The notes: generated from the letters alone by a model not told the origin. A stretch of 64,000 nt of DNA from a virus (IMGVR_UViG_3300017605_000956:14479-78478), one strand, 5' to 3'; counted from the first letter of the stretch, positions 10,541 through 39,312 are shown. Translations and numbers: made by a program.

Positions 10541-11250
10541 TCCCGATGCGATGCTGTATCTGTGGGGAAGCCGAACGGCTCCCCGGCACCGTCGTCTGCA
10601 AGAACTGCAAGGCGGAGATCGTGCTGACCGAGGGCCAGGCGGGCCTCAAAGCCATCGAGGCGCTCCACGAGCTGCCGTCGCATACGACGGTCGCGATCGG
10701 GTCACAGCCAGGTGGCCCGATGCTCGCGAAGGCGATCAAGTGCGAGAGCTGCGGGAAGTCGGAGGTGTACAACCCTCAGAAGCGCAAGGCCTCGTACTTC
10801 TGCGATCTCTGCGGCAAGCAGCTCTGCACCGCGTGCGCCGCCTACTGCAACCACAAGGACTGGAACTATCAGGCGAAGATCGTCTGCAAGCTCTGCCGCG
10901 CCGAGACGTCGCTGACCGGGCAGCCCGTCGAAGAAGTCGAGGGCTCGCTCCCCGGCCAGGGCGACGAGGTGAAGCGTGTGCCGAAGCCCCACTGCGGTCG
11001 GGCGACGTGCGTGGAGGACCCGGAAATGACCGCGCACCCGTGCCCGACTCCAGGCTGCGACCACAAGCCCTTTTGCGAGTGCAAGTGTCCGAAGTGCCGC
11101 GAGGCTGTTGCGTCGGGATTCGTGGAGCCCATGTTCGGCAAGATGCCGCCCGACCCGGATCCGGAGCCCCCGAAGCCGCCGCCGGCACCGGACGATGAAG
11201 ACCTCGAAGACGAGATGGAAGCCCATCGTCGGGAGGCGGAGCAGGCATGA
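10537..11250 (+). CDS. multi-Zn-finger Cys-rich protein with two AExxLT motifs
   Basis: ATG overlaps the VWA gene stop; many CxxC; CKNCKAEIVLT, CKLCRAETSLT. Confidence 0.75.
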   Translation: MIPMRCCICGEAERLPGTVVCKNCKAEIVLTEGQAGLKAIEALHELPSHTTVAIGSQPGGPMLAKAIKCESCGKSEVYNPQKRKASYFCDLCGKQLCTACAAYCNHKDWNYQAKIVCKLCRAETSLTGQPVEEVEGSLPGQGDEVKRVPKPHCGRATCVEDPEMTAHPCPTPGCDHKPFCECKCPKCREAVASGFVEPMFGKMPPDPDPEPPKPPPAPDDEDLEDEMEAHRREAEQA

Positions 11251-11567
11251 TCCTCAGAACGAAGTGGGCCGCCGCTTACGAGGCGGTGAAAGAGCGGATC
11301 GAGAAGACCAGACCGAAGAACGTGGTCATCTTCGAGCTTGTCTGCAAGGGGCTCTATCCGCCCGACGTGCGGATGAAGGACGACGCCGACAAATGCTCGG
11401 CATGCCGCGTGTCGTGGTACAGCTTCGAGCCCGCTTTCGGACACGCGAACGGGCTCCCGCACTTCGTCGCCTGGTGCCTTGAGCACCCGACCGAAGTGCG
11501 GGAGCGGTTCCCGGAGGCGGTCATGGTGTTGACCGAGACGACGCTCATCAAGAAGGAGGCCGTATGA
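11247..11567 (+). CDS. hypothetical protein, partial paralog of 29958..30407
   Basis: HFVAWC..FPE motif; coupled starts. Confidence 0.7.
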   Translation: MILRTKWAAAYEAVKERIEKTRPKNVVIFELVCKGLYPPDVRMKDDADKCSACRVSWYSFEPAFGHANGLPHFVAWCLEHPTEVRERFPEAVMVLTETTLIKKEAV

Positions 11568-12307
11568 AGACGATCGCGATGATCATGCTTCCTCTGGCTC
11601 TTCAGGGATACGAAGAGTCGTCCCAGAAGCTCGCGGACGATCTGGCGAAAGCCGATACCGCCCCGGCCAAGGTCGCTGTGGCGGACGAGTTCGTGAAGCT
11701 CGCGAAGAAGTTCCCGAAGCAGCGCCAGGAGGCGATCGACGGGGCCTCAAGCGCGTACCGCGCAGCGTGGCCGGATCTGGACCCGGTGTGGAAGATGAAG
11801 ACGCGGGAGCGCCTGGCTCGGCTCTACGTCCCTCTCGCTCCGGTACCGGAGAAGAAGCTGCCTGTCGCTGGCTGGGGTGCGATCAGTGGCGCGAAGGCGG
11901 ACTCGTTGCGCGTCCACTCAGGATCCGCATCGCTCCACCTGAAGATCGCGAGGAAGGATGGTGGGCTGGCCGACATGGGCGGCACCGACTTCTTCGAGGT
12001 GAAGCCGGGCAAGGAGCTCGAGCTCTCCGCCTGGGTGCTCACCGATGGGACGGATGGGCTCGACGACAAGTTCGGGTTCGTCCTCTACGATGCTGCGGGC
12101 AAGTCGCTCGTGACGAAGGAACTCGTCGCGCCGAAGGACATTCCGGCCTGGACGCGGCTGTCTGATCGGTTCGAGGTTCCTGCCGGCGCCGTGAAGGCGA
12201 AGATCGGCATCCTCGTGTCGTCGAAGGGCGGCGATCTCTGGTGGGACGACTTCTCCGTCAAGATCGACGGCAAAGAGCAGCTCCGGAATGGGGGCTTCGA
12301 GAAATGA
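11564..12307 (+). CDS. exported protein with a carbohydrate-binding (CBM4/9, galactose-binding-like) domain
   Basis: Hydrophobic N-terminus; VHSGSASL, LSAWV, WTRL, WWDDF, LRNGGFE. Confidence 0.75.
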   Translation: MKTIAMIMLPLALQGYEESSQKLADDLAKADTAPAKVAVADEFVKLAKKFPKQRQEAIDGASSAYRAAWPDLDPVWKMKTRERLARLYVPLAPVPEKKLPVAGWGAISGAKADSLRVHSGSASLHLKIARKDGGLADMGGTDFFEVKPGKELELSAWVLTDGTDGLDDKFGFVLYDAAGKSLVTKELVAPKDIPAWTRLSDRFEVPAGAVKAKIGILVSSKGGDLWWDDFSVKIDGKEQLRNGGFEK

Positions 12308-12513
12308 GCAGGAAAGAAGACCCTAACCAGTACTGGTTCTGGCTCCAGCCCCTTCCCCCGTTCGAGGTACGGTACGCCCCGAACTGGGAGGGCCGGGGTC
12401 GCGGCTTCGTCGGCCCCTTCACGTTCCGCGCTTGCGCGGAACGTGAGAGGACCGATCGGCTTCTCGCTGGGGCGCCCCTGCGACTGATCGGGCCAAAGAG
12501 AAAGGAGCAATAG
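12304..12513 (+). CDS. hypothetical protein
   Basis: ATG overlaps the upstream stop. Confidence 0.5.
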   Translation: MSRKEDPNQYWFWLQPLPPFEVRYAPNWEGRGRGFVGPFTFRACAERERTDRLLAGAPLRLIGPKRKEQ

Positions 12514-12514
12514 C

Positions 12515-13183
12515 ATGGCCGCGAAACCGCTGGTCAAGCCGAAGCACAAGGTGCTGTCGGTGCCGATCGGGATGGTGAACTACAACATCCCGAGCCCCGA
12601 GGCGGCGAAGAAGCGCAACGCCCCCGAGGAGACCGTCAAGTTTCTCTCCCGCGCGACGTGGAGCATCCCCGGAGCGATGCGCCGCGTGTCGATCCCTTGG
12701 GATGGCAGCTTCTACATCTACGCGATGGTGAACGACGCGGAGATCAAGAAGATCCGGGACGAGTGGAACGAGGAGAAGGGCATCCGGTTCCACGTCGTCG
12801 AGGACTGGACCTCGAAGAACCCGGAGGAGACCGCCGAGATCGTTCGGGGCTGTATCGCCCGCAGCCTGGGCGACATCATCGGCTCGAAGGGCGAGGAGCC
12901 CGGGGACGAGCCCAGCGGCCTCCGTGGGTCGCTCGCGAAGCTCTCGAAGCGGTACGAGGAGCTGGACTCGACGGACGCCGATGGCCTCATCGTCGACCGC
13001 ATCCAGGACGCGAAGAAGAAGCTGGAGGACGCCATGGTCGTCGCCGCTTCCTTCGCTCTCACCGAGGACTACGAGGAGCTGCGGAAGACGGTTGTCACGA
13101 CGATCGAGGCGGAGCTGGAACTGGCCCGCATCGAAGTCGGCAAGGTGGCCCTCTCGCGCATGAAGGCAGCCGGGGTGATCTAG
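12515..13183 (+). CDS. helical hypothetical protein
   Basis: RBS AAGGAG; strong coding bias. Confidence 0.75.
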   Translation: MAAKPLVKPKHKVLSVPIGMVNYNIPSPEAAKKRNAPEETVKFLSRATWSIPGAMRRVSIPWDGSFYIYAMVNDAEIKKIRDEWNEEKGIRFHVVEDWTSKNPEETAEIVRGCIARSLGDIIGSKGEEPGDEPSGLRGSLAKLSKRYEELDSTDADGLIVDRIQDAKKKLEDAMVVAASFALTEDYEELRKTVVTTIEAELELARIEVGKVALSRMKAAGVI

Positions 13184-13213
13184 GAGAGCCGGGACCTCCT
13201 CTCCTGGGTACGG

Positions 13214-13242
13214 GTGGGGTGGGGGCGCAGCCCCCACCCCAC
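13214..13242. repeat. perfect hairpin with GCA triloop
   Basis: GTGGGGTGGGGGC-GCA-GCCCCCACCCCAC. Confidence 0.9.
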
Positions 13243-13287
13243 TTCGGGAGAGCGACGAAGGGGAAACGACCGAAAGATTTTTGGAGG

Positions 13288-13653
13288 ATGACCATGACCA
13301 CGATGCTCGGCACGTTTGGGGTAGCCGAAGAGGAGATCGGGAGATTCAACCGGACGCTCCCGCCTCAGACCAAGGTGAAGTACGACGCCCGGTGGGAGCT
13401 GGGGCTCGAAGTCGTGCGGTGGTTCCACTACCGCTACAACGTCGACCACACGTTCATCGGCCGGATCAACTCGGTGGAGGAGCTGCGGAAGAACATGGTC
13501 CCGCGGTACCAGGCCTACTTCATGTCGAGAGGCGTCCCGAAGAAGATGTTCCCGGCCCTCGACACGATCCTCATTGAGCCGCGGATCCAGGAGTTCTGCG
13601 AGATGTTCAAGGACGTCCTGGCGGAGATCGAACTTCTCCGGGAGGCACAATGA
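13288..13653 (+). CDS. hypothetical protein with C-terminal AExxL motif
   Basis: RBS GGAGG; ..FKDVLAEIELL. Confidence 0.7.
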   Translation: MTMTTMLGTFGVAEEEIGRFNRTLPPQTKVKYDARWELGLEVVRWFHYRYNVDHTFIGRINSVEELRKNMVPRYQAYFMSRGVPKKMFPALDTILIEPRIQEFCEMFKDVLAEIELLREAQ

Positions 13654-13955: not shown

Positions 13956-14010
13956 AAAGAGCGTGCGGGGGCGCGGTCGTTTTGACCGCGCTTCCCGGCT
14001 CTCGAGGGTT

Positions 14011-14046
14011 TGCACGTGCTGGCCTTCCTGCGGCTTTGCACGTGCT
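14011..14046. promoter_or_regulatory. two TGCACGTGCT operator-like boxes upstream of the XRE regulator
   Basis: Copies at 14011 and 14037. Confidence 0.55.
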
Positions 14047-14205: not shown

Positions 14206-14469
14206 ATGTCGCAGGTGAAGATCAACGGGTCGAAGCTGAGAGAGGTTCGGATGGGGAAACGCATGACGACCAAGGAGCTCGCGGAGCGGTCGGGTGTGTC
14301 CCCCCGGACGATCGACCGCATCGAATCCGGGGCGCTGAAGGAGGGCGTGAGGGAAGGAACCCTCTTCGCCATCACGAAGGCGCTCGAGGTCGAGCTGGAC
14401 GTTCTGATCGAGTCCGCGCCGATTCCCGCGGAAGTCGGAGAGAAGAGTGAAGACAAGAAAACCGCGTAA
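14206..14469 (+). CDS. XRE-family HTH transcriptional regulator
   Basis: LREVR..MTTKELAERSGVSPRTIDRIESG..ITKALEV. Confidence 0.9.
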   Translation: MSQVKINGSKLREVRMGKRMTTKELAERSGVSPRTIDRIESGALKEGVREGTLFAITKALEVELDVLIESAPIPAEVGEKSEDKKTA

Positions 14470-14971
14470 CGCCGCTCTTGAATTCGCCAAGGGCTTCACG
14501 GTCCTCGTGGCGCGGGAGGCGCTGCGGCAGGGCCGCAAGAGAGTCCTGAACCCGGCGAAGTTCGAGAAGTGGGCGCGCAGCGCGATCCGGTCGGGCGGTG
14601 GGGACCCCGACCGGATCGGGGAGGCCGTCGGAAGGCGGCTTCACTGGATGGTATTCCCTCAGAAGGCGAAGTGGCAGCAGGACGTGGAGTACTGCATCCG
14701 TCGCGGGCGTTCGTTCGCCCGCCGGCATAAGGTGCTGATTGCCGAGCAGGTGCTGACGGGAGACGCGGAGAGGACCCAACTTGAGATGGCAGCGGAAGAG
14801 ATGGTCCGCATCCTTGGGCCGAAGAAGGTCTTGGACCTTCTCGGCAAAGGGAAAGAGAGTAGGGCGTGCGTAAGTCGAAGTCGGAAGCGTTCGAGGATCT
14901 CGCGGCGCCGCTTGGCGAGTTCGTGTTCGAGCTGCGGGCGTCGTGGGGGACGAAAGCGATCGGCACGGTGA
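14447..14971 (+). CDS. hypothetical protein with AExxLT motif
   Basis: ..FARRHKVLIAEQVLT; 3' end overlaps the next gene. Confidence 0.55.
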   Translation: MKTRKPRNAALEFAKGFTVLVAREALRQGRKRVLNPAKFEKWARSAIRSGGGDPDRIGEAVGRRLHWMVFPQKAKWQQDVEYCIRRGRSFARRHKVLIAEQVLTGDAERTQLEMAAEEMVRILGPKKVLDLLGKGKESRACVSRSRKRSRISRRRLASSCSSCGRRGGRKRSAR

Positions 14972-15186
14972 GGGACCTGTCGTGGGGGCTGAGGAATGGT
15001 CTTCGCCTCGTCGTGGTGTCACCGGAGCCGGAGCTGGCCCTGGCGTTCATGATGACGGCGGTGGTCTTGAACGTGTCGGCTGACAAGCTCGACCGGCCGG
15101 ATCCGATCGTTGAGCGGTACGCGCAGGACTTTATCGAGAAGCATCGGAGAGAATTTGCGGAGGCGATCCTGACGTGGCAGGCATAA
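14866..15186 (+). CDS. hypothetical protein with C-terminal AExxLT motif
   Basis: ..FIEKHRREFAEAILTWQA*. Confidence 0.65.
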   Translation: MRKSKSEAFEDLAAPLGEFVFELRASWGTKAIGTVRDLSWGLRNGLRLVVVSPEPELALAFMMTAVVLNVSADKLDRPDPIVERYAQDFIEKHRREFAEAILTWQA

Positions 15187-15191
15187 GCAAA

Positions 15192-15656
15192 ATGAATGGG
15201 AAGCCGCTGATCATCGAGGGCTTTTGCGATTTCGACCAGCCGCTTCGGCGAGTCGAGATCGGGAAGCACACGACGATCGAGGCGTTCGAGCGGTCGAAGA
15301 AGCGCGCCCAGTCCGGGGGCGAGTCGACCTATGGCTGGGTCTGGGCGGAGTTCCCTGATCCGCAGAGCGTCAACCCCATTCCGATGCGGCCGTGGAAGAT
15401 GCACGAGGTCATCGTGGGAAGCCACCAGGCGGGCTGGCTCGCGGCGAGGGATCGCGCCCATGCGGAGCGTCCCGGCGTGTGCTGGTGGACGGCCACGCCA
15501 TCCTGCTGCTCGAAGCTCGTCGCCGTTCCGCTCGGGGAGCATCAGAAGTCGGTGCGGCATTTCTTCTACACCGCCATGGAGTTCCAAGAGCTGACGGTGA
15601 GGCTGTGGCCCTGGATGAAGCCTTTGATCGCGGAGGAGGTCTTGTGCGAAAAGTAG
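15192..15656 (+). CDS. hypothetical protein with C-terminal AExxL motif
   Basis: ..WMKPLIAEEVLCEK*. Confidence 0.65.
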   Translation: MNGKPLIIEGFCDFDQPLRRVEIGKHTTIEAFERSKKRAQSGGESTYGWVWAEFPDPQSVNPIPMRPWKMHEVIVGSHQAGWLAARDRAHAERPGVCWWTATPSCCSKLVAVPLGEHQKSVRHFFYTAMEFQELTVRLWPWMKPLIAEEVLCEK

Positions 15657-16027
15657 AGCCTCAGATCCAGCTCGCCAATTACTACCTCGCGCTGTGCTAC
15701 TCGCTGTGGGCGAGGTACGAGTGGCTCGGGATCAACCTGAACTACGCGGGCATCCAGAGGGTCATGGAGCGTTTGGCGCTGGGGATACCGCTCCGGTGGC
15801 AACGTGATGGGGAAGCGCCGAAGGACATGGAAGAGCGGCTCGCGCAACATCTCACCTGGCTTGTGGTGTCGCGCGGCCGAAAGGTCGAGGACAGCGTCGT
15901 GAAGGACCTGCGCGTCGAAGCTGCGGCGTTCGTCGCGAAGCATCGAGAGCTGTTCGCGGAGATCAAGCTCGCCGGCGCGAGCAAAGACCTGAACAAAGAA
16001 TTGGCGGAGACGGGGAGCAGGGTATGA
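15644..16027 (+). CDS. hypothetical protein with AExxL motif
   Basis: GTG start after GGAGGAGG; ..FVAKHRELFAEIKL. Confidence 0.65.
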   Translation: MRKVEPQIQLANYYLALCYSLWARYEWLGINLNYAGIQRVMERLALGIPLRWQRDGEAPKDMEERLAQHLTWLVVSRGRKVEDSVVKDLRVEAAAFVAKHRELFAEIKLAGASKDLNKELAETGSRV

Positions 16028-16353
16028 GCAGGATGACGCGGATCCAGGTGATCGCGATCCTCGAGAAGAGGATCAAGGACTTCGTCGAGTCCGCTACCAA
16101 CGAGAAGATGTGGCCTCCGTTGTCGCTGACTTCGGGCCAGCTCTCGAATCAGGAAGCGATGATCGGGCTGATCATGATGAGGCTGTCGAAGCCCCGGTTC
16201 CTGAGAGAGCATTTCACGGATCAGCACGTCCCGCAACACTGCAACCTGTGTCAGACGTTCATCTCGAACTACCGGTATGAGTTCGAGGGCAAGGCCAGAG
16301 AGTTTCTGAGCACGAACCGTGAGCTCTTCGCGGAGCTCAACCTGTTGGGCTAA
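16024..16353 (+). CDS. hypothetical protein with C-terminal AExxL motif
   Basis: ..FLSTNRELFAELNLLG*. Confidence 0.7.
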   Translation: MSRMTRIQVIAILEKRIKDFVESATNEKMWPPLSLTSGQLSNQEAMIGLIMMRLSKPRFLREHFTDQHVPQHCNLCQTFISNYRYEFEGKAREFLSTNRELFAELNLLG

Positions 16354-16375: not shown

Positions 16376-16879
16376 ATGAGAGAGATGGCAGAGCCGAAGT
16401 GTCCGAAGGGGTGCCGGGCGCCCGTTGCGCGCCTGGCGGGGACGGATGGCTACAAGCGATACCAATGCGGAAACATGGACTGCCTCGAGACGTGGGATGT
16501 TCCCATCGAGAAGAGACGGTCAGATACGCCGGAGCCCGAAGCTCCGGAGACTCAGGAGGACGACGTGGCGAAGCCCAAGCTGACGTGCCAGTACAACTGC
16601 GGGCACAAACCCTTCTCGTCGGAGAAGTGGAAGCTGAAGCACGAGGAGGCTTGCGCGAAGGAGAAGGACGGCTCCGTCGAAGAGAGCCCGGATCTCCCCC
16701 ACACGCCGGCGACGGAGACGGCGAGGAGCGCCATGGGCTCGGTGATCGACTCCCTCAGGAACAAGCGCGAGTCGATGATCCGGGACAACGAGGAGATCCA
16801 GAAGATCATCGCGGAGCACCCCGACATCAGGAAGATCGACGCCGCGATCAAGCTGCTGGAGTCGGTTCAGGATGTGTAG
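16376..16879 (+). CDS. Zn-ribbon + C2H/C finger + coiled-coil protein
   Basis: CPKGC..CGNMDC; CQYNC..HEEAC. Confidence 0.65.
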   Translation: MREMAEPKCPKGCRAPVARLAGTDGYKRYQCGNMDCLETWDVPIEKRRSDTPEPEAPETQEDDVAKPKLTCQYNCGHKPFSSEKWKLKHEEACAKEKDGSVEESPDLPHTPATETARSAMGSVIDSLRNKRESMIRDNEEIQKIIAEHPDIRKIDAAIKLLESVQDV

Positions 16880-17162
16880 GCTCTGCGACGCCGAGTGCGC
16901 GCTGACCGGCGAGATGGAGCGGGTGATCCTCGAGAACACGAACCCGGGTCACAACAAGCAGTACACCGTCTTCATCGAGCTGGTCGAGGACAACGGCACC
17001 GGCAACGTCCGGGTCATGGGCCGCTGGGGACCTATTGGCGAGAAGTGGACGAGGTCCCAGGAAAAGGGTCGCTTCGTGGCGATCTCGAGTGCGCGGCAGG
17101 CGGTCTATGACCTGGTGCGAGAAAAAGAGGGCCGTGGCTACAAGAGGAGGATCTGTCCGTGA
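16872..17162 (+). CDS. WGR-domain protein
   Basis: HNKQY, GRWGPIG, EKEGRGY. Confidence 0.8.
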   Translation: MCRLCDAECALTGEMERVILENTNPGHNKQYTVFIELVEDNGTGNVRVMGRWGPIGEKWTRSQEKGRFVAISSARQAVYDLVREKEGRGYKRRICP

Positions 17163-17449
17163 AGCCGACGACCACGCGCACCCTCGCCTCCCGCTTCGTT
17201 CGGTTCTGCCTGGATGAGGCGGAGGCGAGGGGCGTTTGGCCCCGTGATCTGCGGTTGGCTTTTGTCGAGCGGGAGTTCTCGGACTTCGGCTCGAAGAATT
17301 TGGTGAACCGGTTGACGAACGTCTACCGACGCATTCTTTACGGGAGGCCGGGAAGCCACCTCGAGGACGAGCTGAAGGTCCGGGTGGAGTTTTGGATGGG
17401 CCTCCCAGAGAACAGGGAGTTCTTGGCGGAGATCGTGCTGACGAGATAG
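17159..17449 (+). CDS. hypothetical protein with C-terminal AExxLT motif
   Basis: ..ENREFLAEIVLTR*. Confidence 0.7.
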   Translation: MKPTTTRTLASRFVRFCLDEAEARGVWPRDLRLAFVEREFSDFGSKNLVNRLTNVYRRILYGRPGSHLEDELKVRVEFWMGLPENREFLAEIVLTR

Positions 17450-17451
17450 CG

Positions 17452-17772
17452 ATGCCGAAAGAGAAGGCGACGCACACGAGGTTTCGGACCTACTGGTCGC
17501 TCTCGTCGACGGGCCAGCGGTCGACGTGCAGCGATTGCGGCCGGCGCGAGCTGCGGGTCGGGTACCAGTGCCGCGGCATGGACTACGGGCACGGCTTCTG
17601 CCAGCGGGTGCGCTGCTGGCTGTGTGCCGGGATCAAGAGAGTCGAGAAGAAGACGATGACCGATATGTGGACGCTCTGCCTCTACTTCGCGGTGATCGAG
17701 AACCAGCTCTGCAAGCCCTGTCGCGCGGAGAACGAGCTGCTTGGCGAGATAAAGGTCATGGTGTCCTCGTGA
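17452..17772 (+). CDS. Zn-finger protein with CxxC-AExxL end
   Basis: CSDC, CWLC, CKPCRAENELL. Confidence 0.6.
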   Translation: MPKEKATHTRFRTYWSLSSTGQRSTCSDCGRRELRVGYQCRGMDYGHGFCQRVRCWLCAGIKRVEKKTMTDMWTLCLYFAVIENQLCKPCRAENELLGEIKVMVSS

Positions 17773-18143
17773 GCTGCGCTCTCTGTCACCGAGGGGTCGA
17801 GACGCTCGCGCTGAACATGAACGACCTCTCGCGCGGACGCCAGCTTGCCGAGAAGCTCGGGGTGAAGTGGGGCGAGAGTGCAGCGGTCTGTATCTGCAAG
17901 CTATGTGTTGCGGAGTTTGAGTTTACGGGAGAATGGACCGTGATCTGCTCGGCTTGCAAGAAGGGGTTCGCCAAGGTGCCGCCGCTCTGCGATAGCTGCG
18001 GGCAGCCCACGTGCGAGGATTGCGCTGCGAAGGAGATACCGCCTGGTCGGTGGGAGATCAGGCACAGCGCGGTGCTGCGGGCCGGAGATCGAATCCGGAT
18101 CTGCAAGAACTGTCGAGCGGAACGAGTGCTTACGGAGGACTGA
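17769..18143 (+). CDS. multi-Zn-finger protein with two AExx(L/F)T motifs
   Basis: CKLCVAEFEFT; CKNCRAERVLTED*. Confidence 0.65.
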   Translation: MSCALCHRGVETLALNMNDLSRGRQLAEKLGVKWGESAAVCICKLCVAEFEFTGEWTVICSACKKGFAKVPPLCDSCGQPTCEDCAAKEIPPGRWEIRHSAVLRAGDRIRICKNCRAERVLTED

Positions 18144-18679
18144 TGGAGACCGCCGAGATTCAGATGTCGCCCAGGGCTGCACGTACCGAAGCCGAGAGGT
18201 ATTCACGGTGCCGGGACCTGACGAAGACCGACCGCCTGATCATGAAGGCGTACAAGTCGATCGCGCACGGGAGCCGGATCATCGACCTCAAGAAGACGAT
18301 GGAGATTGCGGGCTTCGACGACAACGGGCGGCCGCGGCTGGCGATCTGCTGCGCCAATGCGACGCGGGTCGACGTGCGCTGCTGGCCGGGGTCGACGGAG
18401 TTCAAGTGGAACCATCGGTACTACGACCGGAGCTCGATGAGGATCGTGGGCTTTGGGAACAACAGGACCTCCACCGTCGATGGGTGGGCGACGACGCCGT
18501 ACATCCCGCCGTACATCCGGCGCGCTCGGATGAGCCGGTACTTCGTGCTGTGGGAGGCGACGTGGCACAACGTTCCGGCGGGAGATCCCTACCTGCTGGA
18601 GCAGATCGACCAGAACCTCTTCCGCGTGGTCGCGGCGTGGGACATCACGCCGCTCGAGGCGGCGGTGCTGAGGCGATGA
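18143..18679 (+). CDS. phage hypothetical protein
   Basis: TGATG coupling; PRLA, PYIPP, DPYLL, AAWD. Confidence 0.7.
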   Translation: METAEIQMSPRAARTEAERYSRCRDLTKTDRLIMKAYKSIAHGSRIIDLKKTMEIAGFDDNGRPRLAICCANATRVDVRCWPGSTEFKWNHRYYDRSSMRIVGFGNNRTSTVDGWATTPYIPPYIRRARMSRYFVLWEATWHNVPAGDPYLLEQIDQNLFRVVAAWDITPLEAAVLRR

Positions 18680-19017
18680 GAAGAAGAACGATCAATCGGC
18701 CTCCGGTCCACACGTTCTCCCGCCGTCTCGTCCACGAGGCGAACGAGTACGCGAAGAGGGTGGGCCTGAAGCAGATCGACAAGGACCTGCATCTCCCGGC
18801 GTGGGAACAGCTCGAGGATATTATGGCATTGGGCGACGCCTGGAAGGTGGCTGACGTGCTGGCTCTGCACTTCACGAAGGTCTACGATCCGACCGGGAAG
18901 GTGGAGCGGCACGTGGAGGTCATGAGGAAGTTCGTGAGCGACAACAAGGAGCTGGTGGCCGAGGTCGTGTTGACCTATGTGCCTCGACCCAAGATCAAAG
19001 GGAGGAGATTTCCGTGA
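18676..19017 (+). CDS. hypothetical protein with AExxLT motif
   Basis: ..FVSDNKELVAEVVLT. Confidence 0.7.
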   Translation: MRRRTINRPPVHTFSRRLVHEANEYAKRVGLKQIDKDLHLPAWEQLEDIMALGDAWKVADVLALHFTKVYDPTGKVERHVEVMRKFVSDNKELVAEVVLTYVPRPKIKGRRFP

Positions 19018-19792: not shown

Positions 19793-20242
19793 ATGGGGAA
19801 GTTCAAGGCGTCGTTCGAGGGGTACTCGAACGATCTGGTCATGATGGTCGGGATGTCGATGAACGCCTGCGTGCGGAAAATCTGCGAGGAGCAGAGCTGC
19901 AAGCCCGCGAAGTCGTCGTTCCTCGTGCCCGAGACGGCGAACCCCGAGTGGCTACGGAACAACATCGCCTGGCAGGTCGCCACGGCGATCTTCGCGAAGC
20001 CCACGGAGAAGCGCAACGTCAACGAGCTGCACCGCAAGGTGCTCGAGGTCTACGCCGACGTGATCGAGGAGTGGATTCAGGAGAACAAGGCGAACCTGGC
20101 GGAGATCGGCTTCCTCTTCACGCCAGAGGACACCGTGATCCAGACCCAGTCGCCTCCGGTGCAGCACTTCGCCCCCGCGGCAGCGCCTGCGGCGCTGCCG
20201 CCGGGGATCAACGCCATCGTTTGCAGAAGGGGACGGAGATAG
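19793..20242 (+). CDS. hypothetical protein with AExxF motif
   Basis: RBS AGGAGG; ..WIQENKANLAEIGF. Confidence 0.7.
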   Translation: MGKFKASFEGYSNDLVMMVGMSMNACVRKICEEQSCKPAKSSFLVPETANPEWLRNNIAWQVATAIFAKPTEKRNVNELHRKVLEVYADVIEEWIQENKANLAEIGFLFTPEDTVIQTQSPPVQHFAPAAAPAALPPGINAIVCRRGRR

Positions 20243-21529: not shown

Positions 21530-21799
21530 ATGGACGCAATCACAGCATCTCAGTCTCCCGCTATCGACGGAGTGCTGCTCTTCGACCTGTTTTCGATCAG
21601 GACGAGCGAGCCGTTCCTGGTGATGTACGGGATCTCCGCCGCCTTCGGGTACAAGCCCACCGCGGATCAGGTGAAGCTGATCCGGAAGAACATGGGCAAC
21701 CGCGCCATCTTCGAGAAGTGGGAGAAGCTCGGCCAGGAGATGAAGGCCGGGACGCGCCCCTTCCCCGAGTGGCTGACGAAGGTGGAGGCGGTGCGATGA
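21530..21799 (+). CDS. hypothetical protein
   Basis: RBS AAGGA. Confidence 0.6.
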   Translation: MDAITASQSPAIDGVLLFDLFSIRTSEPFLVMYGISAAFGYKPTADQVKLIRKNMGNRAIFEKWEKLGQEMKAGTRPFPEWLTKVEAVR

Positions 21800-22065
21800 A
21801 CGGAAAACTGTTCCAGAACTTCTCGGGCGTCATCCCGCAGCACGCCCAGGTGAAGGGGTCGGGCAATACGATGTCGAACGCGACGTCGGACACGCCCTTC
21901 TTGACGCTCGGGCTCTACTCGGATTCTGACGGCTCGGGGACCGTCCCGTGGCTGCTGTGCCTGCTCCAGGGCGGCCAGGTGGTCTCGGTTCGGGCGACTG
22001 ACGTGTGCATCGAGATGACGGATGAGATGAAAAAGTCGCTGGCCGAAGTGGTGCTGAAGTCATGA
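21796..22065 (+). CDS. small beta protein with C-terminal AExxL motif (paralog of the next gene)
   Basis: ..MKKSLAEVVLKS*. Confidence 0.65.
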   Translation: MNGKLFQNFSGVIPQHAQVKGSGNTMSNATSDTPFLTLGLYSDSDGSGTVPWLLCLLQGGQVVSVRATDVCIEMTDEMKKSLAEVVLKS

Positions 22066-22280
22066 CGTTCTCGAGGCCGCTTCCGGGGATCGTGAACATC
22101 AACAGGGAGCCTGAAGCCGTGGCCGTACTCGGGGTCGAGTCCGGGTCGAGCGGAGGCATCGCGATCGTGTGCCTCAACGGCAAGGGCCAGATATTCACGA
22201 TGCCGCCCGGCTCGGTGAAGGTGCTGGTGGATAAAGAGCTCCGCGAGTGTATCGCGGAAGCAGAGTTGCAGAAACCCTAG
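22062..22280 (+). CDS. small beta protein with C-terminal AExxL motif
   Basis: ..LRECIAEAELQKP*. Confidence 0.65.
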   Translation: MTFSRPLPGIVNINREPEAVAVLGVESGSSGGIAIVCLNGKGQIFTMPPGSVKVLVDKELRECIAEAELQKP

Positions 22281-27265: not shown

Positions 27266-27829
27266 GTGTCGCGCCGGCCGGCCAAAATTCGAGTCGAGGA
27301 CGAGATGAACGAGGACGAAAGGCACGAGGTGTTCAAGTGGCTCCTGAAGAAGAGCTTTTTCTACCAGGGGCTAGTTTGGTGTTACCTACGCGGAAATGAT
27401 GTCCCAGCGATTCTCGGAAAGATGCAGGTCTGGGAAAAGAACCCCGGCCGGAAGTTCTTCGACGAAGACGGCGGCGACATCATGGTGGGGGACCTGATCA
27501 TCGAGGTGAAGAGCATCGGGCTTGAGTTCACCTGCGTAGACGACTACCCCTACGGAGACGTGGTCGTCGACAACATCGGGCAGCACGACGAGAAGGTTCG
27601 CAAGGGCTACTGCCCGAACATCTACGTCTTCGTGTCTCAGGTTACCGGCGCGATGATCTGGACCTCGGTGAAGGAGTGGAAGCACGAGTGGCAGAAGAAG
27701 GTAATTCCGCACAGGTGGACAAAGGAGATGAGGCACGTTTACACCTGTTGGAAAAGCCACTGCAATCCGATCAGGGCGCTGGTGAGTGACCTGAAAGACA
27801 TCTTGGGAGATCAGGCGGTAGCAGGATGA
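27266..27829 (+). CDS. restriction-endonuclease-fold (PD-(D/E)XK) protein
   Basis: DGGDI....IEVK; lower GC than flanks. Confidence 0.65.
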   Translation: MSRRPAKIRVEDEMNEDERHEVFKWLLKKSFFYQGLVWCYLRGNDVPAILGKMQVWEKNPGRKFFDEDGGDIMVGDLIIEVKSIGLEFTCVDDYPYGDVVVDNIGQHDEKVRKGYCPNIYVFVSQVTGAMIWTSVKEWKHEWQKKVIPHRWTKEMRHVYTCWKSHCNPIRALVSDLKDILGDQAVAG

Positions 27830-28134
27830 ATGCGGCGTGGCTGGATGGCGAGTTCTCTCGCGGAGGGCCGGAATGGAAGCTGGTGATCCGGTGGACCCAT
27901 TTCGTCGCGAGGAAGAAGCAGGGAATCACTTCCAGCGAGAGGCACACGTGGAACAAGGGCGTGGTCAACGTCTCGGTCAAGTTCATGGCGCAGGCAATCA
28001 AGAAGGGTGAGATCGTGCTCCTGCCCGAAGCGTTCGGGCGGGGCATGAGCACTTGGGAGCTGCTGAGGGCGTGGTGGCCGGAGTTCATGCAAACAGAAAA
28101 GGAGCTGATCGCAGAGCTGGTGTTGACGCGGTAG
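27826..28134 (+). CDS. hypothetical protein with C-terminal AExxLT motif
   Basis: ..FMQTEKELIAELVLTR*. Confidence 0.7.
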   Translation: MNAAWLDGEFSRGGPEWKLVIRWTHFVARKKQGITSSERHTWNKGVVNVSVKFMAQAIKKGEIVLLPEAFGRGMSTWELLRAWWPEFMQTEKELIAELVLTR

Positions 28135-29445: not shown

Positions 29446-29961
29446 ATGGGACTCGGTGCTATTTTCGTGGATGGCGGCAACGTCTCGTTCGCGCTGAAGA
29501 AGCGATCTCGGGACCAGGGCACGCCGCGGCAGAAGCTCGAGTACGGCGAGCTGGTCAAGGCGCTCGAGGGGAAGCTGGGCGTCAGCCTGGCGTTCAAGGC
29601 ATACTACACGGCGCATCACGATCCGGCCCTCTTGGTGCATCGGGCCGGGTTCTACACGCATCTCCGGCTGAACGGCTGGTCGATCTTCGACACGCCCTCG
29701 AAGCTCTGTCCCGACGGCATCTGGAGGGACAAGGGCGTCGACATGGCGATCGGCCTGGACGCCTACGCGCTGGCCCTCAAGACGCAGATCGACACGCTGG
29801 TCCTCCTGTCCCATGACGAGGACTTCGTCGAGCTGTTCAAGCGGCTGCCAGACGGCATGAGGGGCGTCTCCGTGGGCTTCAAGGATCGCACCGCGATGGC
29901 GATCCAGAAGGTCGCGACGGAGGTGATCTGGCTCGAGGAGCTGGCCGGGGTGATCCGGTGA
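29446..29961 (+). CDS. NYN (LabA/DUF88, PIN-fold) nuclease
   Basis: IFVDGGNV, KGVD, SHDEDF. Confidence 0.9.
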   Translation: MGLGAIFVDGGNVSFALKKRSRDQGTPRQKLEYGELVKALEGKLGVSLAFKAYYTAHHDPALLVHRAGFYTHLRLNGWSIFDTPSKLCPDGIWRDKGVDMAIGLDAYALALKTQIDTLVLLSHDEDFVELFKRLPDGMRGVSVGFKDRTAMAIQKVATEVIWLEELAGVIR

Positions 29962-30407
29962 ACAAAGGCGGTACCTGGCCTGAGACAAAGTACTGGCGCG
30001 AGGCGATGGAGGCTGCTCAGAAGAGGCTCGGCAAGGTCAACCTCTTCAACGGGACCAATGGGACCGGGAGCGGCTACTACGTGGCTCACGACTCACGGGC
30101 GATGTGCTGCTCGCAGTTCGTCCCGTCGGCCAGGAACTCTCAGGGGCCACGCAAGGTGAAGGAACACCTGAGGACCGCGGTCCATTTCAGGACGTGGTGC
30201 GTCGGGAATCGGGAGAAGGCCCTGGAGCTGTTCCCGGAAGTGAAGCCGCTGTTCGCGGAGTACGAGCTGACGAAGGACGCGATCCGTCCTGGCGTCTCGT
30301 CGACTACGTCGATCGAGATGGTCGGATCGAAGCTCACAATCGTCAGGACGACGGTCGATGCGTCGAAGGCGAAGTTCACGATCAGGGATGGAGGGAGGAA
30401 ACCTTGA
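29958..30407 (+). CDS. hypothetical protein with AExxLT motif
   Basis: HFRTWC..FPEVKPLFAEYELT. Confidence 0.65.
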   Translation: MNKGGTWPETKYWREAMEAAQKRLGKVNLFNGTNGTGSGYYVAHDSRAMCCSQFVPSARNSQGPRKVKEHLRTAVHFRTWCVGNREKALELFPEVKPLFAEYELTKDAIRPGVSSTTSIEMVGSKLTIVRTTVDASKAKFTIRDGGRKP

Positions 30408-34184: not shown

Positions 34185-34200
34185 GATCGAGGGGGACATC

Positions 34201-34922: not shown

Positions 34923-35104
34923 CGGGTTACAGGATCGCGGTGTACTGGGAGAAGTTCGGAGGGACGGAAGAGGGCTCGATGAACGACGAGCGGCAGATCG
35001 TCGTCGACCGGAAGCCCTCGGGTCAGGAGATGCGAGATGTCGAGGACGCGCTCCACCTGAAGCTGATGGAGATGGGACTCAAGAAGCAGGGGGACACGCG
35101 ATGA
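34919..35104 (+). CDS. hypothetical protein
   Basis: RBS GGAGG; coupled. Confidence 0.55.
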   Translation: MTGYRIAVYWEKFGGTEEGSMNDERQIVVDRKPSGQEMRDVEDALHLKLMEMGLKKQGDTR

Positions 35105-36924
35105 GGCGCAGCATTGTAGCGGTAGACCTGTTTTGTGGCGCAGGCGGAACGAGCACGGGCCTCGCCCAGGCGTGCGAGCAGCTCGGCCTGAAGGTCGAGC
35201 TCACGGCGATCAACCACTGGAAGGTCGCCATCGCGTCCCACAAGAAAAACCATCCGTGGGCGAGGCACATCGACTCCACCATCGAGAAGGTCGACCCGTT
35301 GGACGTGGCGCCAGGGCGGCGCATCGACCTCCTGGTGGCGAGCCCGGAGTGCAGGCACCACTCGACGGCCCGCGGCGGCCGGCCGATCAACGACCAGAAG
35401 CGGTCGAGCGCGTGGCACATCCTCCGCTGGGCGGAGCTGCTCTACGTGAAGAACATCCTGATCGAGAACGTCCCCGAGTTCAGGAAGTGGGGGCCGGTGA
35501 ATTCCAAGGGCAAGCGGATCAAGTCGCTCGAGGGGAAGACCTACGAGGCCTTCGTCAACGCGCTGCGCGCCCTCGGCTACCACGTCGAGGAGCGGATCCT
35601 CAATGCGGCGGACTACGGCGACGCCACGACCCGCAAGAGGCTCTTCATCATCGCCAGGCGGCACAAACGGACGATCCCTTGGCCGAAGCCGTCCCACTCC
35701 CAGGCTCAGTGGACGCCGGCGAAGAAGATCATCAACTGGGCGCTCCCGGGAACCTCGATCTTCCGGCGCAAGGAGGCCGGGCTTCAGCCGCTCGCGGCGA
35801 AGACGATCGACCGGATCGCGGAGGGCATCAAGAAGTTCGCCGGGCCGTGGGCCGAGCCGTTCCTGGTGCTGCTCCGTGGTACCGGGAAGTCCAGGTCGAT
35901 CAAGCTCCCCCTCCCGGCGCTGACCGCGCAGGGGAACCACGTCGCACTGTGCGAACCCTTCCTGCTGTCGCACCGCGTGTTCAAGCAGAGCAACGTCGAC
36001 TCGATCAAGAAGCCGATGCGGACGATCACGTCGACGGCGAGGGACATCGCTCTCGCCCAGCCGTTCCTGATCAACCTCGAGCACTACGGCGGAAACGGGA
36101 AGAACGTCCGGTCGATGAAGGACCCGATCTACACGATTTCCACGAAGACCGGGATGGGGATAGCGGTGCCCTTCATGGTACCGCAGTTCGGGGAGAACAA
36201 GGGGCAGAAGCCCAGGACTCACTCTGTCGGGAAGCCTCTGCCCGCACCCACCAGTCATGGCGCCGGCGCGCTGGTCGCTCCGATCATCATCACCCCCGGA
36301 GGTCCAAATCTCAGGAAGGGACGAAGCGTGAACGAGCCGCTGCCCACGGTGACGTGCAAGGACCGCTTCGCCGTGGCGACGCCGTTCATCCTGCCCAGGA
36401 AGGGCTTCTACCAGAGCACGGGCAACATCCCGCGATCGGTGGAGAAGCCCATCCCGACGGCCACGACCCGCGGCGCCGGGTTCCTGGTCGAGCCGTACAT
36501 GGTGAAGGTCAACCACGGCCAGAACGACACGAAGAAGGGCTCTGTGGGACGTCGAGCCCACTCGCTCAAGAAGCCCCTGCCCACGCTGACGACGCACAAC
36601 GGGATGGCGCTCGTCGCGCCCATGCTGGTGAAGTACTACGGCACCGGGCAAGCCAAGAGCGTGACGGATCCGGTTCCGACGATGACCACGAAGGCGAGGG
36701 CCGGGCTCTGCACGCCCATCGCGGCCGGGGAGTACGCGATCGACATCCTGTTCCGGATGCTGACCCCGCAGGAGCTGGCGGCCGCGATGAGCTTCCCAAA
36801 GGGATACGAGTTCGCAGGGCGCAAAGAGGACCAGGTGAAGCAGATCGGGAATGCCGTGGCGGTGAAGAAGGCGCGCGCCCTCTGCACGGCGATCCTCAAG
36901 GAAGAGTTTCGAGTCAGGGCGTAG
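35101..36924 (+). CDS. C5-cytosine DNA methyltransferase with repeat-expanded variable region
   Basis: DLFCGAGG (I), SPEC (IV), ENV (VI), RKRLF (VIII), IGNAV (X). Confidence 0.95.
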   Translation: MRRSIVAVDLFCGAGGTSTGLAQACEQLGLKVELTAINHWKVAIASHKKNHPWARHIDSTIEKVDPLDVAPGRRIDLLVASPECRHHSTARGGRPINDQKRSSAWHILRWAELLYVKNILIENVPEFRKWGPVNSKGKRIKSLEGKTYEAFVNALRALGYHVEERILNAADYGDATTRKRLFIIARRHKRTIPWPKPSHSQAQWTPAKKIINWALPGTSIFRRKEAGLQPLAAKTIDRIAEGIKKFAGPWAEPFLVLLRGTGKSRSIKLPLPALTAQGNHVALCEPFLLSHRVFKQSNVDSIKKPMRTITSTARDIALAQPFLINLEHYGGNGKNVRSMKDPIYTISTKTGMGIAVPFMVPQFGENKGQKPRTHSVGKPLPAPTSHGAGALVAPIIITPGGPNLRKGRSVNEPLPTVTCKDRFAVATPFILPRKGFYQSTGNIPRSVEKPIPTATTRGAGFLVEPYMVKVNHGQNDTKKGSVGRRAHSLKKPLPTLTTHNGMALVAPMLVKYYGTGQAKSVTDPVPTMTTKARAGLCTPIAAGEYAIDILFRMLTPQELAAAMSFPKGYEFAGRKEDQVKQIGNAVAVKKARALCTAILKEEFRVRA

Positions 36925-36926
36925 CT

Positions 36927-37136
36927 ATGTGCCTGAGCTGCAAGCGGTGCGCGTGTCCCCACGGCGCCGGTCCCTGTGACCTGTACACGCCGAATGGGGT
37001 TTGCGTCGCCTGTCGTAACTTTTGCGAGAAGGGGTTGAACCGTGGCCTGTCGTGGGCACATTTGGGACGTGCCTCGTCTGGAGCACCTGGACTTCGGGAC
37101 GGGGCCGCGGCACAGGAAGTACAGGAAGTGCCTTAG
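36927..37136 (+). CDS. possible small Cys-rich protein
   Basis: MCLSCKRCAC..CVAC; overlaps an alternative Cys-rich frame starting at 37042. Confidence 0.35.
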   Translation: MCLSCKRCACPHGAGPCDLYTPNGVCVACRNFCEKGLNRGLSWAHLGRASSGAPGLRDGAAAQEVQEVP

Positions 37137-37198
37137 GTGCGAGAAGCGTCAAACGGAGTTTTCGGTTCCCTGTAATTGCGAAGGAATGGAGAAGAGAG

Positions 37199-37651
37199 AT
37201 GGGCAAGTACGCGGAGGGGACGAGCGTCCCCGTGGAGAGAAGTCAGACCGAGATCAACCGGGTCCTGGCGAAGTTCGGCGCGGACCAGTTCGCGCAGGCC
37301 TCGAGCACGACGCCTCCGGCGGTCCTGATCGGGTTCAGGGCCAAGGGCAAGCTGATCAAGTTCCACCTGCCCATGCCGACGGGAAAGGACTTCCGGGGCA
37401 CGGAGCTCCAGATCGAGAAGCAGTTCCAGGCGGAGTGCCGGCGCCGGTGGCGCGCGCTGCTCCTCGTGCTGAAGGCGAAGCTCGAAGCGGTCGACTCGGG
37501 CATCACCACGTTTGAGCAGGAGTTCTACGCCCACATGGTCCTGCCTGGCGGGATGACGGTCTTCGAGTCGACGAACAAGGAGGTCTCGCGGGCGATCGAG
37601 ACGGGAACGCCTCCTTCGTTCATGATCGGCTTCGACGGGGGAAAGAAGTGA
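37199..37651 (+). CDS. phage hypothetical protein
   Basis: YAEGTSVPVERS.., RRRWRALLLVLKAKLEAV, EQEF. Confidence 0.75.
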   Translation: MGKYAEGTSVPVERSQTEINRVLAKFGADQFAQASSTTPPAVLIGFRAKGKLIKFHLPMPTGKDFRGTELQIEKQFQAECRRRWRALLLVLKAKLEAVDSGITTFEQEFYAHMVLPGGMTVFESTNKEVSRAIETGTPPSFMIGFDGGKK

Positions 37652-38433
37652 GCGACAACATCGAGCTGGTCTTGGGGGACGGCATCCGCTGGCTCGAGCG
37701 CCAGTCGGCCAGCTCGCTCGACGGGATCTTCACGGATCCGCCATGGGGCGCAGGCCCGGAGATCAAGGGCCAGGCCCAGTGGAAGGAGCTGATCTCGAAG
37801 ATGTCGCGTGCCGCGTTTCGGGCGTTGAAGCCGAGCGGTCGGCTCCTGCTGTGGGTGGGGATCAACCGGATGGACGGGGCGATCCGTTCAGTGACGAAAC
37901 GCCTGACCTTCTCTGGAGCGATCGTTATTCGCACCATCCCGCCCACGTGCCGCGGCCGCTGGGTGCTCGGTGGCGACCACGTTCTGATCTACGGCCGCTA
38001 CGGGTACGCGAGGCCTGTCGCGAAGATGGCTGCCGGGGAGATCACGCTGCCGTCGCTCTACGGGAACTTCACGAGCTCCGGCGTCCGGACGGGACCGGAC
38101 ACCGATCACCCATGCGCGCGGGACCTGCGGCCGGCGACGATCATCGCGCGGCAGTGGTTCCGAGCTGGGGAGCGAGTCGCTGACCCGTTCGGCGGATCCG
38201 CCGTGCTGGCGTGCGCCCTCGCGGACGTCGGAGCGAAAGCCACGTCGATCGAGATCGACCCGAAGATGCACAAGACCGCGGTGAACCGTGTGGCTCACCG
38301 CACGCCGAATCTGTTTAGGGAGAGGGACCATGGCCCACAAGATCAGGACCATCTGTTCGATCTGCGACAAGGAGCTCGCACCCAGGAACGGCGCCCCCGG
38401 CGATCCCGCGCACATCCGGTACGTGGACGATGA
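37648..38433 (+). CDS. beta-class N4-C/N6-A DNA methyltransferase
   Basis: TDPPW (IV) preceding DPFGGS (I); HP motif; IEID. Confidence 0.85.
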   Translation: MSDNIELVLGDGIRWLERQSASSLDGIFTDPPWGAGPEIKGQAQWKELISKMSRAAFRALKPSGRLLLWVGINRMDGAIRSVTKRLTFSGAIVIRTIPPTCRGRWVLGGDHVLIYGRYGYARPVAKMAAGEITLPSLYGNFTSSGVRTGPDTDHPCARDLRPATIIARQWFRAGERVADPFGGSAVLACALADVGAKATSIEIDPKMHKTAVNRVAHRTPNLFRERDHGPQDQDHLFDLRQGARTQERRPRRSRAHPVRGR

Positions 38434-38587
38434 GCGCCACAGCGGGTGCAGCCGGCCGTCCTCGATCGGGAAGAAGCCGATCCGGGTCGGCGGCTACGAC
38501 CCGGAGAAGAAGCGCGACACGACCGGCGAGTCGGTGCGCGCCCTGGATGGGACCGGTCTGACGGAGCGCCCGGCTCCGGTCGTCTAA
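38330..38587 (+). CDS. small CxxC protein
   Basis: CSIC..HSGC. Confidence 0.5.
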   Translation: MAHKIRTICSICDKELAPRNGAPGDPAHIRYVDDERHSGCSRPSSIGKKPIRVGGYDPEKKRDTTGESVRALDGTGLTERPAPVV

Positions 38588-38603
38588 CTTTTCTGGCCTG
38601 GTA

Positions 38604-38634
38604 TCGGGGGGTGGGGCGGAGCCCCACCCCCCGA
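38604..38634. repeat. perfect hairpin with GGA triloop
   Basis: TCGGGGGGTGGGGC-GGA-GCCCCACCCCCCGA. Confidence 0.9.
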
Positions 38635-38653
38635 CCGAAGACGCGAGGAGAAT

Positions 38654-39061
38654 ATGGATCTGCCCTGCCCGTACTGCCGGGGGTCCGGCAAGTTTCGTCA
38701 CGAGCGTCCGAAGAACGTCTCGGACAAGTGGTGGTTCGACATGGTCGGTCAGAGGATGGCTTGCCCCCTGTGCAAGGGCGCGGGCAAGATCGTCCGAGGC
38801 GCGGACTCGCTGGTCGTGGACACCGGCCTGATCTTCATCAAGAACCTCGACCGCAGGGTTCTGGTGGGATGCCCGGACCAGACCTGCACCCTCTGGGTCG
38901 ATGCGACGGACGCCTTCGGCCGGCGCGAGATGAGCGCACCCACCGGGCGCGCGAAGACCGTGGCCGACACGCCCCAGGCCGACTTCGCGGTGAAGTGCAA
39001 GAACGGCCACGACGTCGTTCTCTCGATGACTCCGGGAGCTGCTCGGTGGAAGCCCCATTGA
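38654..39061 (+). CDS. DnaJ-type CxxCxGxG Zn-finger protein
   Basis: CPYCRGSG, CPLCKGAG; RBS AGGAG. Confidence 0.7.
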   Translation: MDLPCPYCRGSGKFRHERPKNVSDKWWFDMVGQRMACPLCKGAGKIVRGADSLVVDTGLIFIKNLDRRVLVGCPDQTCTLWVDATDAFGRREMSAPTGRAKTVADTPQADFAVKCKNGHDVVLSMTPGAARWKPH

Positions 39062-39312
39062 TCGGCATCGCGAAGTCGCTGGTGAAGCACCTCGAGGAGG
39101 CTGGGGTCGAGGTCACTCCCGATCTCGACTTCGCGGTCGAGGCCTGCAGGGGCTCCCTCAAGAAGGGGGTCCGGGAGTTCATGGACCTGGCCGAGAAGAC
39201 GTTCACGAATCGGATCAGGCCGAGGCGGAAGGCGCTGGGCGTCTTCAGGAAGTTCCGGGAGGACGTGAAGGTGTGGCTGGCGGAATTGGTGCTCACGGAG
39301 AGAGAGGTCTGA
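39046..39312 (+). CDS. hypothetical protein with C-terminal AExxLT motif
   Basis: ..FREDVKVWLAELVLTEREV*. Confidence 0.6.
   Translation: MEAPLIGIAKSLVKHLEEAGVEVTPDLDFAVEACRGSLKKGVREFMDLAEKTFTNRIRPRRKALGVFRKFREDVKVWLAELVLTEREV

Follow-up and report, generated by a model that had tools for sequence, protein, structure and literature searches.

A short peptide motif, [KR]-x3-A-E-x2-L-T, recurs in small proteins encoded in the non-structural part of the genome of an uncultured virus. This motif is real, acts at the level of the peptide and is specific for one clade; on balance we favour the reading that it represents mostly the conserved terminal helix of an expanded family of paralogous proteins, and that it is a shared binding helix. 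The virus is represented by the IMG/VR record IMGVR_UViG_3300017605_000956 (78,478 bp), and the window analysed here comprises 64,000 nucleotides, namely bases 14479-78478 of this record; all positions are counted from the first letter of the window. According to this reading the motif would mark a group of small non-structural proteins which evolve fast and are restricted to this clade, and it would form a discrete amphipathic helix of about 11 residues.

A preliminary description of the window had listed 19 sites of an AExxLT-type tag, and all 19 coordinates translate to the peptides given there. Five of them (10612, 10900, 17725, 17910 and 18117) had been set apart as a zinc-ribbon variant, CxxC-x-AExxL(T), here called Zn-type; all five are present, and a scan with regular expressions adds a further one, MCRLCDAECALTGE at 16890. 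In total 20 sites are found in 18 genes, among 63 called genes between 10.5 and 40.4 kb. All 20 sites have K or R at position -4 from the Ala, so that [KR]-x3-A-E-x2-L-T describes the motif better. Zn-type sites have two Cys at -5 and -2; in the helical type N or H is found at -5 and Leu at -2. Eleven of the 20 sites end not more than 10 residues before the stop codon, and six are internal or N-terminal.

As a control for enrichment 2000 within-protein shuffles of the proteome were used. The pattern AE..LT was observed 11 times compared to 0.50 expected, [KR]...AE..LT 11 times compared to 0.07, and [KR]...AE..L 23 times compared to 1.3; none of the 2000 shuffles reached the observed count of any of the three patterns, so that the frequency of the motif is far above chance. 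The strict motif is absent from the five other reading frames, from the first 14.5 kb of the genome and from the structural block beyond 40.4 kb, where only loose matches occur (48507 and 54912). This agrees with the former remark that the tag had not been noticed in the structural block: the strict motif is confined to the non-structural block and to the coding frame of genes at 10.5-39.3 kb.

The comparison of the motif and its surroundings with the orthologues on L002 and L003, two metagenomic contigs from soil carrying syntenic orthologues, reveals that 40 of 111 identical residues differ in the synonymous codon. The K or R at -4 is encoded variously by AAG, CGN or AGG, and the codons for Ala and Glu correspond roughly to the genomic usage. 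Since synonymous codons differ freely between orthologues and codons also vary across the sites, selection acts on the peptide, as the preliminary description had correctly stated. The opposite view, in which the nucleotide sequence GCGGAGnnnGTGCTGACG serves for ribosome binding or translational coupling, is the -35 element of a promoter or marks a boundary of recombination, with the peptide as its by-product, is highly improbable and already largely ruled out. At the site 15630 (in carrier J, see below) and possibly at 15157 a GGAGG does have the Shine-Dalgarno (SD) spacing to a GTG with which the next gene may begin, and a mild codon bias exists at +3 (GTG in eight of nine Val) and +4 (YTG in 14 of 18 Leu); however, the distance from the Ala to the next start ranges from 17 to 56 nt, several sites are internal or N-terminal, the pattern occurs in the coding frame only and never on the opposite strand, and K or R at -4 is kept by means of unrelated codons. 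Taken together, codon variation, spacing and the internal and N-terminal sites indicate that the signal lies in the protein.

Single candidates for a function of the nucleotides were considered as well. A coupling site would be expected 5-13 nt before the next start, and its nucleotides should be conserved; the spacing of 17-56 nt and the synonymous variation do not agree with this as a general explanation, which fits one or two sites. The octamer of a possible -35 element (GTG-YTGAC) occurs just nine times on the plus strand and four times on the minus strand, and this idea was rejected because any transcript would begin only downstream of the next start codon. Also a processing site at the protein level, the T4-type prohead-protease site (L/I-x-E), was considered; the Zn-type sites with K, R or D at -1 do not fit it.

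The carriers of the helical type, including two with a loose version of the motif, are listed here with the score of a position-specific scoring matrix (PSSM) of 16 or, where named core, 10 residues.

Carrier I, 13294-13653, plus strand: 119 residues, KDVLAEIELL at 13609-13638; weaker tier, 16-residue PSSM score 11.3
Carrier A (P0001), 14447-14914, plus strand: 155 residues, KVLIAEQVLT at 14729-14758, followed by a basic tail of 56 residues
Carrier F, 14866-15186, plus strand: 106 residues, RREFAEAILT at 15145-15174; PSSM score 21.7 compared to a shuffled 95% level of 15.0
Carrier J, 15174-15656, plus strand: up to 160 residues (the start may be the ATG at 15192), KPLIAEEVLC at 15618-15647
Carrier B, 15644-16027, plus strand: 127 residues, RELFAEIKLA at 15944-15973
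Carrier K, 16024-16353, plus strand: 109 residues, RELFAELNLL at 16318-16347
Carrier D, 17159-17449, plus strand: 96 residues, REFLAEIVLT at 17414-17443; PSSM score 20.4; orthologue P0004
Carrier C, 18676-19017, plus strand: 113 residues, KELVAEVVLT at 18946-18975
Carrier H, 19793-20242, plus strand: 149 residues, variant KANLAEIGFL at 20087-20116
Carrier M, 21796-22065, plus strand: 89 residues, loose KKSLAEVVLK at 22030-22059; core PSSM score 10.8, near the shuffled median
Carrier N, 22062-22280, plus strand: 72 residues, loose RECIAEAELQ at 22242-22271; core PSSM score 10.7
Carrier G, 27826-28134, plus strand: 102 residues, KELIAELVLT at 28099-28128; PSSM score 27.8; orthologue P0011
Carrier L, 29958-30407, plus strand: 149 residues, KPLFAEYELT at 30243-30272, then a tail of 49 residues; core PSSM score 17.2
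Carrier E, 39046-39312, plus strand: 88 residues, KVWLAELVLT at 39268-39297; PSSM score 19.0; orthologue P0006

The bodies of the carriers had been described as mostly unrelated. This stands for the WGR and Zn-type proteins when compared with the helical ones; for the main group it is not supported, because a 16-residue signature, the position of the Ala and, for some of the members, profile alignments connect them. The signature, F-h-x-x-[NH]-[KR]-E-L-h-A-E-h-h-L-T, is common to eight carriers and lies above the maximum of the shuffled sequences. When the 16-residue PSSM was trained on A, B, C and K (95% maximum of the shuffled proteome: 15), G, F, D and E scored 19-28, and H, I and L remained below the 95% level and above the shuffled median. 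The Ala is found at residue 90-110 in ten carriers, with tails ranging from 6 to 56 residues; a constant position regardless of the tail is predicted by a common domain of about 105 residues and would be unexpected for a tag on arbitrary bodies. By hhalign, A and C match with 85% over 104 columns, that is over the full length, A plus C and B with 93% over 63 columns, B and K with 84%, and J and L with 83% over 55 columns, so that at the level of sequence profiles A, B, C and K on one side, and J and L on the other, appear homologous beyond the motif.

Seven of the helical carriers form one tandem array at 14.4-20.2 kb, the gene content and order of which differ in L002. The signature, the position of the Ala, the profile links and the predicted helical bundle described below together lead us to regard the helical carriers as a family of paralogues which expanded in tandem: A, B, C, D, E, F, G and K would be diverged tandem copies of a single domain with five helices and about 100 residues, and H, I and L probably belong to this family, too. 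Carriers M and N are weak paralogues of each other (BLAST E 0.043). Measured against what is expected of a tandem family, the carriers have a common domain size and layout, and they cluster with a content which varies among relatives. Measured against a tag of the short linear motif type, the frequency is above chance, but the carriers are overall not free of homology. In family K a CxxC precedes the motif by about 28 residues. An intermediate between the Zn-type and the helical type was therefore considered here, and the idea was dropped because this CxxC is not conserved in the paralogue B.

For the structure of the domain an AlphaFold2 model was calculated from the alignment of A and C (predicted local distance difference test, pLDDT, 81.7). 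It predicts helices at residues 9-27, 36-50, 54-69, 77-93 and 95-105, and the motif, K95-T104, represents the last helix with a pLDDT of about 95. In the main family the motif would be the last helix, N-capped by Asn or His. The model of carrier I, of low confidence, is all-helical with four helices in a layout corresponding to that of A. The notion of a free docking tag finds no support in the model of family A, in which the motif appears as an integral helix of a folded bundle and not as a flexible segment.

Conservation within families was calculated for H and A, the two families with enough orthologues. In both of them the motif is the most conserved window of 12 residues (0.97 compared to 0.74 overall in H, 0.80 compared to 0.53 overall in A), which makes a shared function plausible. 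When the motif is drawn as a helical wheel, the positions specific for the scaffolds (-5, -2, -1, +2 and +3) share one face, and another face bears the invariant residues K(-4), A(0) and L(+4) together with E(+1) and T(+5). Because the invariant residues are on a face separate from the scaffold-specific positions, the helix is read as a common binding surface. We have moderate confidence in such a shared interaction surface, which is deduced from the helical wheel. The diversified early proteins may by this surface engage one shared partner, either of the host or of the virus.

Two of the carriers show further peculiarities. The genes of A and F overlap by 49 nt, and the tail of A is rich in Arg and Ser and poorly conserved among the orthologues. 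Carrier H represents the most widespread family, with 16 orthologue clusters at 90% (P0013, P0019-P0034); its WIEENKxNLAEIGFLFxP block and its C-terminal tail C-R-R-G-[RK] are invariant, and it also has a linker rich in Pro and Ala.

The second group of carriers consists of a WGR-domain protein and three Cys-rich proteins.

10537-11250, plus strand: Cys-rich carrier, 237 residues, two Zn-type motifs, CKNCKAEIVLT at 10600-10629 and CKLCRAETSLT at 10888-10917
16872-17162, plus strand: WGR-domain protein, 96 residues, Zn-type motif MCRLCDAECALTGE at 16878-16907, at the extreme N-terminus
17452-17772, plus strand: Cys-rich carrier, 106 residues, CKPCRAENELL at 17713-17742
17769-18143, plus strand: Cys-rich carrier, 124 residues, two Zn-type motifs, CKLCVAEFEFT at 17898-17927 and CKNCRAERVLT at 18105-18134

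In these proteins the core K-x3-A-E-x2-L-T would directly follow a CxxC zinc knuckle, with the first CxxC at least 10 residues upstream of C-K-x-C-x-A-E-x-x-L-T. The protein 16872-17162 is a member of the WGR family (PF05406, E 1.1e-7, 32.3 bits compared to a cut-off of 22, residues 18-93); its motif occupies residues 2-13, outside of the WGR domain and within an N-terminal extension of 13 residues, and the orthologue in L002 keeps it. This protein also has a conserved Cys two residues from the C-terminus. The carrier 10537-11250 resembles 17769-18143 (BLAST E 0.003) and 17452-17772 (E 0.008), and L002 possesses an additional Cys-rich carrier of the Zn-type. No Pfam zinc-finger family reached its threshold, the FYVE match of 17769-18143 (E 0.0012) being below the cut-off.

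Whether the motif is shared across scaffolds was assessed with the core PSSM of 10 residues, for which the eight main families served as the training set. Elsewhere in the proteome it gives six matches scoring at least 10, compared to 1.05 expected; after collapsing paralogues about four independent families remain, with p about 0.02. As judged from the sequences, sharing beyond the main family is suggestive but not compelling, and an extension of the motif to the zinc-knuckle and WGR scaffolds is plausible.

These findings bear on a stricter modular explanation, in which the motif is a truly transferable docking helix that was placed on unrelated bodies by shuffling or convergence and directs about 18 early proteins to one hub, perhaps a complex of the host but not MoxR/VWA. 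The same core occurs at N-terminal, internal and C-terminal positions and on a WGR domain, on Cys-rich fingers, on the probably beta-rich pair M/N and on the helical bundle, hhalign between Zn-type and helical families finds no match above 20%, the bodies have no detectable similarity once the motif is removed, and within families no block is better conserved than the motif. Most carriers nevertheless share domain length, the 16-residue signature and homology at the profile level, the helix of family A belongs to a confidently predicted fold, and the sharing across families amounts to the p of about 0.02 mentioned above. We regard the modular explanation as rather unlikely, and the same low expectation applies to a portable docking module on at least three unrelated scaffolds, namely the helical bundle, a zinc knuckle joined to a WGR domain and Cys-rich fingers, that routes about a quarter of the early proteins to one common hub of the host or the virus. 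If it were true, such a module would correspond in a phage to the PRANC/F-box strategy of poxviruses or to effector-adaptor codes.

The interpretation of the motif as the shared terminal helix of a paralogous family has several points against it. A leave-one-out hidden Markov model search with the carrier bodies minus the motif finds no similarity, pairwise BLAST of the bodies gives nothing significant, hhalign yields for D, E, F, G, H and I matches of motif length only, and H compared to A plus C reaches just 0.7% despite a profile of 17 sequences. In view of the motif-length matches and the negative search the common descent of all helical carriers is based on length, signature and layout. 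Furthermore, the exposed stripe on the helix stems from the helical wheel, and at the p value obtained after paralogue collapse the resemblance of the Zn-type sites to the main family could be coincidence.

Searches against known proteins were carried out at several levels. With Pfam and PHROGs no carrier gave a match above threshold except for the WGR domain at 16872, and profiles of the PDB sequences gave no match for the carriers. A Foldseek search of the carrier models against PDB and BFVD found no match at E <= 0.001, the highest Z in the VIA wide fold search was 6.4 (1u84_A, an uncharacterised protein of 81 residues), which is within the range expected for helical bundles, and in the ESM Atlas no carrier obtained a score above 0.82.

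The distribution of the carriers is narrow. A profile search of 1.84 billion representatives found only 14 proteins, all of which are orthologues of single carriers and possess the motif; a second search added 16 further orthologues of carrier H, and a word search with carrier C as single protein gave no match. Among GenBank phages nothing close to the virus was found by megablast and tblastn. Scans of IMG/VR revealed no close relative and returned three loci with only 27-28% identity in the protein DUF2201 (see below). Scans of genome contigs for relatives gave only a fragment of 2.2 kb (DATAYL010000609.1), which encodes the N-terminal part of a relative of the DUF2201 protein (52% identity) and is binned in a metagenome-assembled genome of Bryobacteraceae (Acidobacteriota); this binning is a weak hint at the host.

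Upstream of the carriers two genes encode the proteins which had been proposed as the hub of the tagged proteins.

8105-9229, plus strand: P-loop ATPase with Walker A GDTGIGKT and Walker B VYFLDEF (phrog_1297 'ATPase', E 1.2e-55)
9329-10540, plus strand: protein with DUF2201_N metallopeptidase-like (PF13203, E 7.9e-43) and DUF2201 VWA-like (PF09967, E 2.6e-17) domains

The DUF2201 gene begins 99 nt downstream of the ATPase gene. The ATPase had been called a MoxR ATPase, for which the Walker motifs and the adjoining VWA gene speak; the assignment to MoxR is not borne out by Pfam, as AAA_5 reaches only E 0.15 and 12.5 bits compared to a cut-off of 22. Among PDB sequences no relative of this ATPase was found. 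For the second protein, the predicted combination of an HEXXH peptidase with a VWA metal ion-dependent adhesion site (MIDAS) is well supported by its sequence: both Pfam domains are above threshold, and the putative catalytic and MIDAS residues are intact. The HExxH is found at residues 67-71, the MIDAS comprises D271, S273, S275, T332 and D356, and H67, E68, H71 and the MIDAS residues are invariant in 63 homologues. In agreement with the proposed translational coupling of the first carrier to this pair, the start of 10537-11250 overlaps the DUF2201 stop codon by ATGA.

It was suggested that the invariant Glu of the motif docks in the MIDAS of the DUF2201 VWA domain, so that the machine formed by ATPase and VWA-peptidase would remodel or cleave its tagged clients. 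We consider this very unlikely, although the invariant HExxH and DxSxS..T..D residues and the overlap of the first carrier with the DUF2201 gene would suit it. A DUF2201 orthologue (82% identity) together with carriers of families B and H is apparently located on one contig of 35,286 bp of a relative, as judged from identical lengths of the longest contigs only. Nothing beyond gene adjacency and the ATGA overlap ties the motif to the pair, and the proposal is supported only by the neighbourhood of the genes and their synteny in close relatives. For DUF2201, 892 homologues were found, and 669 phage records contain matches, whereas the profile search found the carrier families only in a few close relatives; in three distant viral loci with DUF2201 (44 kb in total) the strict motif is not present. 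Besides, the ATPase is not verifiably a MoxR protein, and the Glu of family A is placed by the model in a folded helix and not in a flexible peptide. A prediction of the complex of DUF2201 (alignment of 63 rows) with residues 1-112 of family A, Mg and Zn had a score of 0.00, which speaks neither for nor against binding.

As for the genomic surroundings, the virus record has direct terminal repeats of 141 bp and a G+C content of 64%, and every confident gene of the window is located on the plus strand. In addition to many small open reading frames, the block at 10-40 kb encodes a PD-(D/E)XK nuclease, an AAA_24 ATPase, a ParB-like protein, a DUF3987 protein, and C5 and N6A methyltransferases. 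Immediately before the carrier array, and at the same position in L002, a regulator without the motif is encoded.

14206-14469, plus strand: XRE-type helix-turn-helix regulator, not a carrier (phrog_5823, E 1.5e-10)

The arrangement of an XRE regulator followed by the array is reminiscent of anti-defence operons composed of a regulator and small proteins. Two DNA methyltransferases are found at 1760-2551 and 35101-36924, a D12-class N6-adenine enzyme and a C5-cytosine enzyme with a long fused C-terminal region. In the early block the region 11564-12307 encodes a protein of 247 residues which has an orthologue in L003 and matches segments of minor tail proteins of phages (phrog_346, E 1.8e-8). 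Two more paralogous pairs, both without the motif, are present at 30404-30799/31764-32156 (BLAST E 2.7e-12) and 50171-50956/50960-51766 (E 4.2e-8). The late block is headed by a protein of 580 residues (42881-44623) without a match in Pfam or, by tblastn, in 50,697 phage records, and a transglutaminase-like Cys protease is encoded at 45160-45921. Among the large proteins scanned from here to about 62.7 kb no terminase, portal or HK97 hallmarks were seen.

If the helix is indeed a common binding surface, one interaction would explain about 18 opaque early genes in poorly understood soil viruses, and the target of a whole host-takeover or anti-defence repertoire could become identifiable. If the helix does no more than build the folding core in a family of paralogues, the carriers would represent an ordinary lineage-specific expansion, and the motif would still be a useful signature for annotating these viruses.

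Several known systems can be compared with the proteins described here. RavA-ViaA is an example of a MoxR-VWA pair. Kaur et al. reportedly described in 2020 vWA-MoxR conflict systems with adaptor domains. Like in such pairs, the ATPase gene of the virus adjoins a gene for a VWA-domain protein with an apparently intact MIDAS, and the concept of adaptors which connect many effectors with the core of one nucleoside triphosphatase is similar; unlike in those, the ATPase is below the Pfam threshold for AAA_5, and the DUF2201 pair is common in phages without the motif family. In treble-clef and zinc-ribbon knuckles the second CxxC opens a helix. The Zn-type sites, C-K-x-C-x-A-E-x-x-L-T with a first CxxC upstream, look alike and may bind metal, although their carriers do not reach the threshold of a Pfam zinc-finger family.

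Within Pfam, PHROGs, PDB and BFVD the carriers have no relation in sequence or fold to a described family, and the closest parallels are those of organization and function. Poxvirus ankyrin-repeat proteins bear a C-terminal PRANC/F-box-like motif. By analogy, many paralogues with diversified bodies would here, too, keep a short helical element, docking to a single hub being a proposal in our case; sequence similarity to the poxvirus proteins does not exist, and the bodies are predicted to be helical bundles of about 100 residues and not repeats. Large phages and other viruses have expanded families of small early or accessory genes, such as the hyperplastic early regions of T4-type phages and the multigene families of African swine fever virus. 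As in those expansions, the genes of the window are tandem, fast-diverging, small and non-structural, their content varies between close relatives, and they retain one short conserved block; what distinguishes them is that this block is a single helix of 10-16 residues.

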